A DNA stretch of 64,000 nt from Solirubrobacteraceae bacterium (GTDB taxonomy: Bacteria > Actinomycetota > Thermoleophilia > Solirubrobacterales > Solirubrobacteraceae). Position 1 is the first letter of the stretch, and every line of letters begins with the position of its first letter. Location of the stretch: NCBI GenBank assembly GCA_035508735.1, contig DATJMM010000008.1:9021-73020 (forward strand), given 5' to 3'. The notes beneath the pieces were generated by a model. It made no database searches. It worked only from the letters and a program-made list of their open reading frames with translations, and was not told the origin of the DNA. This document shows positions 3,163-6,603 of this stretch, piece after piece. The position numbers and the translations under genes are program-made.

Positions 3163-3756
3163 ATGAGCCGCTGGAAGCCCGACGCCCGCGGCCGCCTCGC
3201 GCGAGCGGCGATGGAGCTCTACGGCGAGCACGGCTTCGAGCAGACCACCGTCGCCGAGATCGCGGCGCGGGCGGGGCTCACCGAGCGAACCTTCTTCCGT
3301 CACTTCGCGGACAAGCGCGAGGTCCTGTTCGAGGGCGCGGCTGCGCTCGAAGCGCGCCTCGTAGACGGCGTGGTCGCCGCACCAGCCGACGCCGCGCCGA
3401 TCGAGGTCGTCGCCGCGGCGCTGCGCTCGATCGCGCCGATCTTCGCCGAGCGCCGGCCCTTCGCCCGCCAGCGTCAGGCGATCGTCGCCGCCAACCCCGA
3501 GCTGCGGGAGCGCGAGCTGATCAAGCTCGCCGCGCTCGCCGCCGCCGTCACCGCGGCGCTGCACGAGCGCGGCGTGGACGAGCCACAGGCGAGCCTCGCC
3601 GCGGAGGCCGGGATCGCGGTGTTCCGCATCGGCTTCGATCGCTGGGTCGCCGCCTGTGACGACGGCGCCGAGCTCGGCGAGGTGATGGACGAGCTGTTCG
3701 GCTCGCTCAGCGCGCTCGTGGCGGCGGGCGTCGCTCCGCGCAAAGCGCGTCGCTAA
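3163..3756 (+). CDS. TetR-family transcriptional regulator
   Basis: HTH GFEQTTVAEIAARAGLTERTFFRHFADKREVLF; divergent from the SDR. Confidence 0.93.
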   Translation: MSRWKPDARGRLARAAMELYGEHGFEQTTVAEIAARAGLTERTFFRHFADKREVLFEGAAALEARLVDGVVAAPADAAPIEVVAAALRSIAPIFAERRPFARQRQAIVAANPELRERELIKLAALAAAVTAALHERGVDEPQASLAAEAGIAVFRIGFDRWVAACDDGAELGEVMDELFGSLSALVAAGVAPRKARR

Positions 3757-4121
3757 CGATGGGCGACGCTGCTCGAGGCCGGTGCACGCGCGGGGAAGCG
3801 CTGCTCGTTGCGCTCGATCTTCCTGTATGCGGCGTTCAGCGGATCGACGCCCAAGACGTCACACAGTCGGACCAGGTAGATGAGCACGTCCGCGATCTCG
3901 TCTTCGAGCTCATCGAGGAGCGGGCCCACGTCTTGATCTGCCGTCGCCCATTGCAGGATCGCGGCCAGCTCGCCCGCCTCGGCCGACACGGCTGTGGTGA
4001 GGTTCTTGGCCGTGTGCAAGCGCTCCCAGGAGCGTGCGTGCGCGAACTCCCGCAGCCGCCGCTTCAGCCGCTCGATCTCCGAGGGGCTGCGGGCCAGCGT
4101 CGCCGGCTCGCTCCGCATCAT
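3753..4121 (-). CDS. MazG-like nucleotide pyrophosphohydrolase (DCTPP1/RS21-C6-like)
   Basis: FAHARSWERLHTAKNL..EAGELAAILQW..EDEIADVLIYLVRLCDVLG..KIERNEQRFP. ATG at 4121 overlaps the upstream TGA (ATGA), so the track's 4439 start is too long. Confidence 0.85.
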   Translation of the reverse strand: MMRSEPATLARSPSEIERLKRRLREFAHARSWERLHTAKNLTTAVSAEAGELAAILQWATADQDVGPLLDELEDEIADVLIYLVRLCDVLGVDPLNAAYRKIERNEQRFPARAPASSSVAHR

Positions 4122-5125
4122 GCGCTCAGCAGGCGCGGAGCGTCGAGCGCTGCGGCCACCTCCCGTCGATGCCACGCCAGATAGCCCTCGTTCGCCGGCC
4201 CGAAGCAGGTGAACGCCCGCCCGTCGAGGTGCGCCAGCATCTCCCGCCGCCATTGGCTCATGTCGGCCGCCTCGGTCGTCCTGATCACACCCGCGCCGTC
4301 CACGAACACCGCGCCGCTGTCGAAGCAGTGATGACACGTCACGCACGCCAGCACGGCCACGCCTGTATCGAGCCGCTCCTGCTCGCTGCAGACGCGCCGC
4401 TTCTTCAGATGCGCCACCTCGAGGTCCTCGGCGACGCATTCCCGCTCACAGAACGCACACGGGGCGCTCGAGCGCCCGGCGAGCAACGCCCTGCGCATGC
4501 CGCTCGCCTCGCGGCGCTGGACGATATGGCCGAGAACGTCGGTCGAAGCGCCCCCCGCCGGCAGGCGCGGAGCACCGCTTGCAGGTGGGCTGCCGAGCGT
4601 CGCGGGAGCGATCACCCAAGGCATCGAGGCGAAGATGCCCGACATGCGAATCGCCTCCGCGATCGCAGGGTTGATCTCGGCCATGCGCAGCTCCACGTTC
4701 TTCTCGTGCGCGTAGACGTTGATCGGGACGCGCAGGTCCCACTCGTCTGGTTCGCGTTGGCTCCACACCCGCGAGGTTGCGGTGTAGGCAGGACCCTCCA
4801 CTTCGAAGAGCGCGAACTCGGAGAACTGCGCCTTCACGAAGTGCGCGAGCGGTGCGCGCGGGCCGTAGGCCGATCCCGCCTCGTTGCGCGGCGGCTGCGC
4901 CGGGTTCTGCCAGCTGAACCCGTGCACGGCGATGCCGAGCTGTCCCGGCTGGATGCGCTCGAACGCCGGCCTGTGACTCATCTTGTCCGCGGTGCTGCCC
5001 TTCGAGCCCCACAAGCCGCGAGCGACGCAGATCGGAAAATCCCGCCCCCAGTGCTCGCCCACCGCCGAGCACGCGATCGTCAGCGCCTGTTCGGCGACCA
5101 TCTGCTGCGCGTAGAGTCCAGACAT
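4118..5125 (-). CDS. Putative EVE/PUA-like reader fused to an HNH endonuclease (type IV restriction-like)
   Basis: C-terminal CAFC..LEVAHLKKRR..LACVTCHHCFDSG is HNH_2-like with Zn ligands. The N-terminus has ICVARGLWG, FERIQPGQ, FALFEVEGPAY and WDLRVPI, resembling EVE. AAGGAG SD present. Confidence 0.6.
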   Translation of the reverse strand: MSGLYAQQMVAEQALTIACSAVGEHWGRDFPICVARGLWGSKGSTADKMSHRPAFERIQPGQLGIAVHGFSWQNPAQPPRNEAGSAYGPRAPLAHFVKAQFSEFALFEVEGPAYTATSRVWSQREPDEWDLRVPINVYAHEKNVELRMAEINPAIAEAIRMSGIFASMPWVIAPATLGSPPASGAPRLPAGGASTDVLGHIVQRREASGMRRALLAGRSSAPCAFCERECVAEDLEVAHLKKRRVCSEQERLDTGVAVLACVTCHHCFDSGAVFVDGAGVIRTTEAADMSQWRREMLAHLDGRAFTCFGPANEGYLAWHRREVAAALDAPRLLSA

Positions 5126-5281
5126 TGCTCTCTCCTTCGAGTCGGAAATGGGAGATGGGACGAGGGCCAGCAGGCTCCGAGACGTCCCGGCCAGAAGCTA
5201 ACGGGCCTACCGGACGGCGATCGACGGTCTCGGTGACGCCGGCACCGGCGGCGAGGGGCCGGCGGAGCAGACCGGCGTCGT

Positions 5282-6603
<1,322 letters not shown>

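Follow-up and report, generated by a model that had tools for sequence, protein, structure and literature searches.

The window analysed here, a stretch of 64,000 nucleotides from a Solirubrobacteraceae bacterium (contig DATJMM010000008.1), contains two adjoining genes that encode a 335-aa nuclease with a putative modified-base reader domain and an HNH domain (P0001) and a 122-aa MazG-like pyrophosphatase (P0002). On balance, we consider that this cassette of a soil actinobacterium is probably a horizontally shuffled accessory defence against non-host base modification, made of a type IV nuclease and an optional pyrophosphatase. The nuclease is a very divergent newcomer to a known type of enzyme; coupled to a DCTPP1-like partner, it makes up what would be a new form of type IV restriction.

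The nuclease gene occupies positions 4118..5125 of the minus strand, from an ATG start codon at 5125..5123 to a TGA stop codon at 4120..4118. A Shine-Dalgarno sequence, AAGGAG (reverse complement of 5132-5137), lies 6 nt ahead of the ATG. The MazG-like gene follows on the same strand (3753..4121), its start codon overlapping the nuclease stop codon in an ATGA motif (4118..4121; TCAT on the plus strand) that is predicted to couple its translation to that of the nuclease gene. The original prediction, made from the DNA letters, had described a 335-aa gene with its own Shine-Dalgarno sequence whose TGA overlaps the ATG of a MazG-like gene. Both features were recovered by direct reading of the coding strand, with the clarification that the two genes are on the minus strand.

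The C-terminal part of P0001 (residues about 207-335; 4121..4507, minus strand) is predicted to form a zinc-finger HNH domain of the beta-beta-alpha-Me type. Pfam gave no significant match for the protein: HNH_2 appeared at E 0.09 and the N-terminus matched nothing. With NCBIfam, the C-terminus of model NF045808 (phosphorothioate-DNA restriction endonuclease) aligned with residues 204-323 at E 3.6e-6, below its cut-off. P0001 has 36 homologues, 48-99% identical, and an alignment and profile were built from 32 homologues. When this profile was compared with the PDB, the sole convincing match was the HNH domain of VcaM4I (6yex, E 4.6e-5), with H239, H265 and D269 of P0001 aligned with H224, D250 and D254 of VcaM4I, three residues whose substitution by Ala abolishes activity (PMC7897488). 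These residues, as well as the cysteines of the two CxxC pairs (223-226 and 261-264), are invariant in the 32 sequences. We propose H239, H265 and D269 as candidate catalytic residues and C223, C226, C261 and C264 as candidate zinc ligands. Since the catalytic equivalents of VcaM4I and the four zinc-site cysteines are invariant, the HNH domain looks catalytically competent. An HNH with CxxC/CxxC had been noted at this end of the protein in the original prediction, and the profile search agrees with the HNH assignment. The two enzymes also share a C-terminal 'YL.WHR..V' helix. As opposed to VcaM4I, P0001 has a canonical His in place of D250, a Val in place of the structural Asn N241 (the N241A substitution in VcaM4I has only a mild effect; PMC7897488) and the CxxC...CxxC zinc site, which is absent from VcaM4I in the alignment.

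The N-terminal part of P0001 (residues 1-178; 4592..5125, minus strand) is separated from the HNH domain by a linker (residues about 179-206; 4508..4591, minus strand) that was modelled with low confidence and corresponds to variable alignment columns. In the full-length AlphaFold model, the predicted local distance difference test (pLDDT) averages 75 and drops below 50 for residues 174-206, as for a disordered linker; a predicted helix (residues 199-215) is entered from the linker and precedes the HNH core. A Foldseek search of the PDB with this model returned VcaM4I (6yex) as the best match (E 1e-8), followed by the EVE proteins PH1033 and MJECL36 and then by YTH domains. Checking the N-terminus against the PUA clan by AlphaFold and Foldseek had been suggested with the original prediction. 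The AlphaFold2 model of residues 1-178 (pLDDT 90.4, predicted template modelling score 0.86) produced 50 top PDB matches that are all EVE or YTH. EVE proteins (2hd9, 1wmm, 2p5d) came first, at E 2e-7 to 5e-5, the best matches being 2hd9 (E 2.4e-7, TMt 0.54) and 2p5d (TM 0.50/0.59). YTH domains ranked behind, at about 1e-4 and TM 0.35-0.41, and a viral structure library gave only weak PUA-like matches. The residues on which an EVE domain had been recognized by eye were located in P0001 (ICVARGLWG 32-40, ERIQPG 56-61, FEVEGPAY 107-114, LRVPI 131-135) and are mostly invariant or nearly so among the 32 homologues. By its predicted structure, the N-domain is a divergent EVE/YTH-like fold of the PUA superfamily that falls outside Pfam EVE in sequence tests. 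The EVE assignment of the original prediction therefore survives as motifs and modelled fold, and not as sequence membership, which no sequence method recovered: Pfam, NCBIfam, PADLOC, and phmmer and hmmsearch against the PDB gave no match for this domain, and fold comparison alone succeeded. A six-frame PF01878 scan of the whole host genome gave 0 matches, and 20 other genomes of the phylum were matched.

Six aromatic residues of the reader domain are invariant: W26, W39 (in W39-G40-S41), F70, W72, W121 and W129. In VcaM4I, the base pocket is formed by P24/W82/Y130, and in YTH domains by a Trp cage; we regard the six aromatics of P0001 as candidates for a pocket receiving a flipped modified base. 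Overall, the modelled architecture fits the EVE-HNH type IV endonuclease group (VcaM4I/TspA15I), with an N-terminal PUA-superfamily reader, a linker with a helix and a C-terminal HNH of the HNH_2/VcaM4I type. It differs from this group by a reader that escapes both Pfam EVE and profile-profile detection and contains a 16-residue insertion, by the confinement of its family to Solirubrobacterales, and by the coupled downstream DCTPP1-like gene. A term search of PMC7641849 and PMC6765204 found no mention of a DCTPP1-like partner of VcaM4I or TspA15I.

P0002 had been described as a DCTPP1/MazG-like enzyme, and phmmer searches of the PDB agree with that description, with matches to the archaeal structure 4qgp (AF1178; 3.3e-22), to mouse DCTPP1 (2a3q/6sqw, about 2e-15) and to human DCTPP1 (7mu5, 1.3e-13), an enzyme that breaks down modified DNA precursors. 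The alignment to structures of the family spans nearly the full length of the protein. Pfam scores lie around the cut-offs (MazG 23.0 bits, cut-off 22; MazG-like 26.6 bits, cut-off 27). We mapped on P0002 the DCTPP1 residue roles given in PMC13291643. The metal site ExxE...ExxD is kept as E48, E51, E75 and D78, the Trp47/Trp73 base sandwich as W32/W58, His51 as H36, and the equivalents of Asp98, Ile101 and Tyr102 are also present; Y82 is among the conserved residues. The pairs E48/E51, E75/D78 and W32/W58 do not vary among 8 MazG partners. By sequence, P0002 is securely a member of the DCTPP1/RS21-C6 family (XTP3TPA; 2oig, 6sqw, 7mu5), all-alpha nucleoside triphosphate (NTP) pyrophosphatases, and shares with these proteins and AF1178 a MazG-fold core of about 100 residues. 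It differs from them in being encoded downstream of a nuclease and in lacking the eukaryotic N- and C-terminal extensions.

The association of the two genes was examined in related loci. Of the 11 loci of family A, to which P0001 belongs, 5 have a same-type MazG as the next gene downstream, transcribed in the same direction and often overlapping the nuclease gene by 4 nt. Overlaps of this length were present between the predicted genes of loci L002, L005, L141 and L142. In one further family-A locus, the MazG is of a second type and convergent to the nuclease. A sister family, B (316 aa), shows homology to family A from end to end, reader included (hhalign E 8e-36). All four family-B loci examined, one of them from Nocardioides, carry the same MazG directly downstream. 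The MazG type of P0002 was found in only 2 of 61 related genomes, each time abutting such a nuclease. Chance adjacency is ruled out, because the same gene order, often with the 4-nt overlap, recurs in unrelated genomic flanks. When family B is used to root the tree, nucleases without a MazG branch among those that have one, which implies a paired ancestor from which MazG was lost independently at least three times. The MazG thus depends on the nuclease context, and the nuclease does not depend on the MazG, which is a functional but optional partner.

Reader and MazG domains also occur in other combinations. P0038 is a single protein in which a reader domain is fused to a MazG of the second type. 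In a Baekduia metagenome-assembled genome (MAG), a MazG of this second lineage (L004:6014-6364, minus strand) is convergent to the nuclease; it is 38% identical to P0002 and 66% identical to the MazG part of P0038 (residues ~205-327). This 66% identity suggests that the fusion arose by rearrangement from an L004-like locus. P0040 (214 aa) and P0043 (194 aa) are stand-alone reader domains with neither a nuclease nor a MazG domain.

The nuclease is rare. Its family comprises 36 clusters among 5.8 billion proteins, every named one coming from Solirubrobacterales MAGs, and a survey of 185,579 species genomes yielded no more than 9 loci. A search of 1.84 billion representatives with a profile of the reader domain produced only 9 matches, and Pfam annotates a reader in none of them. 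The nuclease is encoded by 3 of the genus's 37 genomes and by none of the 24 sampled from other families of the order. The flanks of the cassette differ in every genome; in the close relatives L020 and L022, the common sequence extends beyond the gene by only about 160 bp on its upstream side and 60 bp on its downstream side. This patchy presence and the different flanks in each genome are what would be expected of a shuffled accessory gene and not of a housekeeping one. Phage and plasmid collections contained no full-length relatives of the nuclease; matches were limited to the HNH domain, on actinobacterial plasmids. In one locus, a 974-aa Mrr_cat-NACHT protein is encoded directly upstream of the most divergent nuclease-MazG pair of family A (L005:1379-4303, minus strand). 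This protein is a defence-type STAND NTPase with a restriction-like nuclease domain. In another, on a Nocardioides sp. contig (JASLGR010000018.1), a ScoMcrA_N-HNH gene (L140:1894-2883, minus strand) is divergent beside a family-B reader-HNH/MazG pair. The candidate defence module of the original prediction accordingly shows the distribution of a defence-like accessory module, patchy and shuffled among flanks, with defence-type genes adjoining two loci. The L140 locus thereby holds two different modification-directed HNH nucleases side by side.

The methyltransferases of the carriers bear on the base that would be recognized. No C5-methyltransferase was found in the host genome, which encodes three methyltransferases of the N6/N4 type and one Dam-like enzyme. 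This set fits a reader that would ignore the N6-methyladenine (6mA) and N4-methylcytosine (4mC) marks of the host. A general anti-correlation between the nuclease and C5-methyltransferases fails, however, as 2 of the 4 nuclease-carrying genomes of the genus have such enzymes. Plain 5-methylcytosine (5mC), recognized independently of context, is therefore an unlikely trigger. A hypermodified base such as 5-hydroxymethylcytosine (5hmC) or a non-cytosine modification may play this role. Among characterized enzymes, the TspA15I group prefers 5hmC, TspA15I also cuts DNA containing 5-hydroxymethyldeoxyuridine (5hmdU), and the actinomycete PUA-HNH group of ScoA3V shows 6mA-stimulated nicking (PMC6765204).

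In the mechanism that we favour, the nuclease would be a modification-dependent type IV restriction endonuclease with a VcaM4I-like architecture. Its divergent EVE/YTH-like PUA reader would flip a modified base into the aromatic pocket, and the linker helix would gate the zinc-stabilised HNH domain, which would then cut the DNA. P0002 would hydrolyse the triphosphate of the same modified nucleotide, probably a pyrimidine, to the monophosphate. In doing so it would keep salvaged or phage-made modified deoxynucleoside triphosphates (dNTPs) out of host DNA, so that the chromosome is spared by the nuclease, and would cut off the supply of the special precursor to a hypermodifying phage. The MazG would be an optional enhancer or safety device rather than an obligate subunit. 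We also considered that P0002 forms a second layer of immunity acting on the nucleotide pool, and that its monophosphate product might be the ligand by which the PUA-like reader releases the HNH domain. Conversion of a modified dNTP to the corresponding deoxynucleoside monophosphate (dNMP) would then both starve the phage and prevent self-restriction driven by salvage. We regard this extension as unlikely.

Several observations weigh against the favoured mechanism. At the sequence level, Pfam EVE (PF01878) did not match P0001 at E<=1, comparison by hhalign of the N-domain alignment with 14 EVE proteins of actinobacteria was not significant (probability 0.2%), and the TM-scores of the reader to EVE structures are just about 0.5-0.6. 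PADLOC-DB v2, in which a catalogued defence system was to be sought according to the original prediction, recognises neither protein with a system model: P0001 has a weak similarity to the PtuB HNH (E 0.003) and P0002 has none. The cytosine-filter residue His38 of DCTPP1 is replaced by L23 in P0002, an invariant Leu in the alignment of the partners, and Tyr129 by F109. Because of these two replacements, cytosine specificity of P0002 is plausible, not established. Full-length C5-methyltransferases are encoded by the genomes G033, which has a solo family-A nuclease, and G001, which has a family-B pair. Five of the 11 family-A loci have no MazG and no remnant of one, so any role of the MazG is dispensable for about half of the family-A nucleases. 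The two-gene module originally proposed, and the co-occurrence by which it was to be checked, consequently hold as a recurrent nuclease-then-MazG pairing in families A (5/11) and B (4/4), but not as an obligatory one, given the repeated losses. The reader-MazG fusion P0038 is a singleton on one contig, and a search for further fusions gave none. Finally, the window locus is outside any defence island, with tetR, mntH and a DtxR-family repressor gene as neighbours, and the GC content of the cassette (0.69-0.70) is the same as that of its surroundings and not anomalous.

The main rival is a nucleotide-sensing system of the abortive-infection type, in which the PUA-like domain would bind a free modified mononucleotide and thereby unleash the HNH domain. 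Such a ligand might be released when methylated host DNA is degraded, or might itself be a modified dNMP made by the phage, and the MazG would either make this ligand from the modified dNTP or act as a second, dNTP-depleting effector. A recent preprint (10.64898/2026.01.15.699771) describes a PUA-like domain that, on sensing free m6-dAMP, switches on an effector that depletes dNTPs, and notes PUA-HNH fusions as well as rare systems with a MazG in place of the effector. The P0038 fusion fits such a sensor-effector logic, the Dam-like and N6/N4 methyltransferases of the host could supply methylated mononucleotides, and YTH folds, which read m6A, are the second-best structural matches of the reader. 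Yet VcaM4I, which is both the best full-length structural match and the sole match at the sequence level, is a restriction enzyme that reads DNA. Moreover, the MazG variants of PUA-Cal-HAD keep the HAD partner, whereas no HAD gene is found beside the pair here or in related loci, and P0002 is a free-standing 122-aa MazG which, because it has no sensor domain, would be toxic as an unregulated dNTP-depleting effector. We find nucleotide sensing improbable. It is also rather unlikely that the same logic of reader-nuclease plus pyrophosphatase is directed against a target other than a modified cytosine, with the MazG tuned to the matching dNTP. Candidates would be 6mA, 5-hydroxymethyluracil or other hypermodified thymidines, 7-deazaguanines, or phosphorothioate-linked contexts. 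Such targets agree with the significant structural matches to YTH m6A readers, with the activities of ScoA3V on 6mA and of TspA15I on 5hmdU mentioned above, with the resemblance of the HNH domain to PT-dependent (phosphorothioate-dependent) enzymes of the ScoMcrA type, with the missing His38 filter and with the coexistence of the nuclease and C5-methyltransferases in G033 and G001. Nevertheless, EVE structures outscore YTH, the pyrimidine-stacking Trp sandwich and the His51 of DCTPP1 are conserved in P0002, and a context-independent 6mA reader would conflict with the Dam-like and N6/N4 methyltransferases of the host.

Two readings that do without immunity are contradicted by the distribution data. 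A nicking endonuclease directed at damaged bases, working with a nucleotide-pool sanitiser in a housekeeping role, would recall mammalian DCTPP1, a house-cleaning enzyme (PMC13291643); it would also suit the ordinary metabolic and regulatory genes and native GC content around the window locus, and the housekeeping neighbours of many distant MazG relatives. We judge it very improbable: the nuclease is missing in 34 of the genus's 37 genomes and in every one of the 24 sampled from other families of the order, the P0002-type MazG is absent from 59 of 61 genomes, the position of the cassette differs from genome to genome, and both families are tiny. The idea of an addiction pair, with the HNH nuclease as toxin and the MazG as its neutralising partner, has in its favour two small, translationally coupled genes with a patchy, mobile distribution. 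Intact nucleases nevertheless persist without MazG in 5 of 11 loci and in the whole genomes G023 and G033, MazG was lost independently at least three times, the nuclease comes first and the MazG second, and the nuclease possesses a built-in regulatory reader domain. A toxin-antitoxin function is the most improbable of all the explanations considered.

Two known associations resemble the cassette. PUA-Cal-HAD (10.64898/2026.01.15.699771) likewise combines a PUA-like sensor of modified bases with nucleotide-directed enzymes, but no calcineurin-CE or HAD partner lies next to the pair or in the related loci, the MazG is a separate small protein, and the closest structural relative of P0001 is a DNA-reading restriction enzyme. 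Bell, Wolf & Koonin 2020 (PMC7641849) point to homologues of SauUSI with an adjacent MutT/Nudix homologue in the legend of a figure, where this association is mentioned in passing and not analysed. There too, a modification-dependent restriction enzyme stands beside a small NTP pyrophosphohydrolase; its fold is Nudix as opposed to the all-alpha MazG fold here, and the nuclease and reader also differ. This survey of EVE proteins does not mention MazG. DefensePredictor lists MazG among unvalidated predicted defence domains. Full-text literature searches returned no paper pairing 'EVE domain' with MazG, nor DCTPP1 with restriction endonuclease and phage.

To our knowledge, type IV restriction enzymes are treated as single proteins or as McrBC-type systems that act only on DNA. 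If our reading is correct, a coupled DCTPP1-family pyrophosphatase would add a nucleotide-pool layer to type IV restriction. It would solve the problem of self-restriction that arises when modified nucleotides are salvaged, and might counter phages that replace a base completely. Should the monophosphate indeed be the ligand of the reader, a single coupled system would both restrict modified DNA and keep watch over modified nucleotides. Both proteins may also serve as reagents, the very divergent EVE/YTH-like reader as a possible new specificity for epigenetic-base tools, and P0002 as a compact homologue of DCTPP1 from a bacterium, probably with a narrow substrate range.

At the window locus, the pair lies, as originally described, between a TetR regulator gene (PF00440; 3163-3756, plus strand) and an Nramp/MntH transporter gene (PF01566; about 6580..5282, minus strand). 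The DtxR-family repressor gene, an ABC transporter, an NmrA-like epimerase and an ECF sigma factor are encoded in the vicinity. The stop codons of the convergent tetR (plus strand) and MazG (minus strand) genes overlap at 3753-3756, leaving zero intergenic space and no terminator, and a consensus scan of the window locus for promoters and terminators found none. Comparison with the closest tetR orthologue (G022, 82% identity) as an empty site defined no clean insertion boundary; synteny with G022 breaks exactly at the 3' end of tetR, and the neighbours there differ.

More distant DCTPP1-like genes (39-58% identity) were found at 80 metagenomic loci, where their neighbours are mostly ordinary-looking. 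The DCTPP1-like MazG family may partner with several nuclease or helicase defence genes. At 13 of these 80 loci (L047, L050, L053, L063, L079, L084, L088, L089, L091, L097, L105, L113 and L121), a protein of ~620 aa with a Schlafen-group-3/DUF2075 helicase domain (PF09848) is encoded next to the MazG on the same strand. At L063 and L121, an HNH_2 nuclease gene precedes the MazG gene and the helicase gene follows it; one of these two nucleases has a PUA-like N-terminus.

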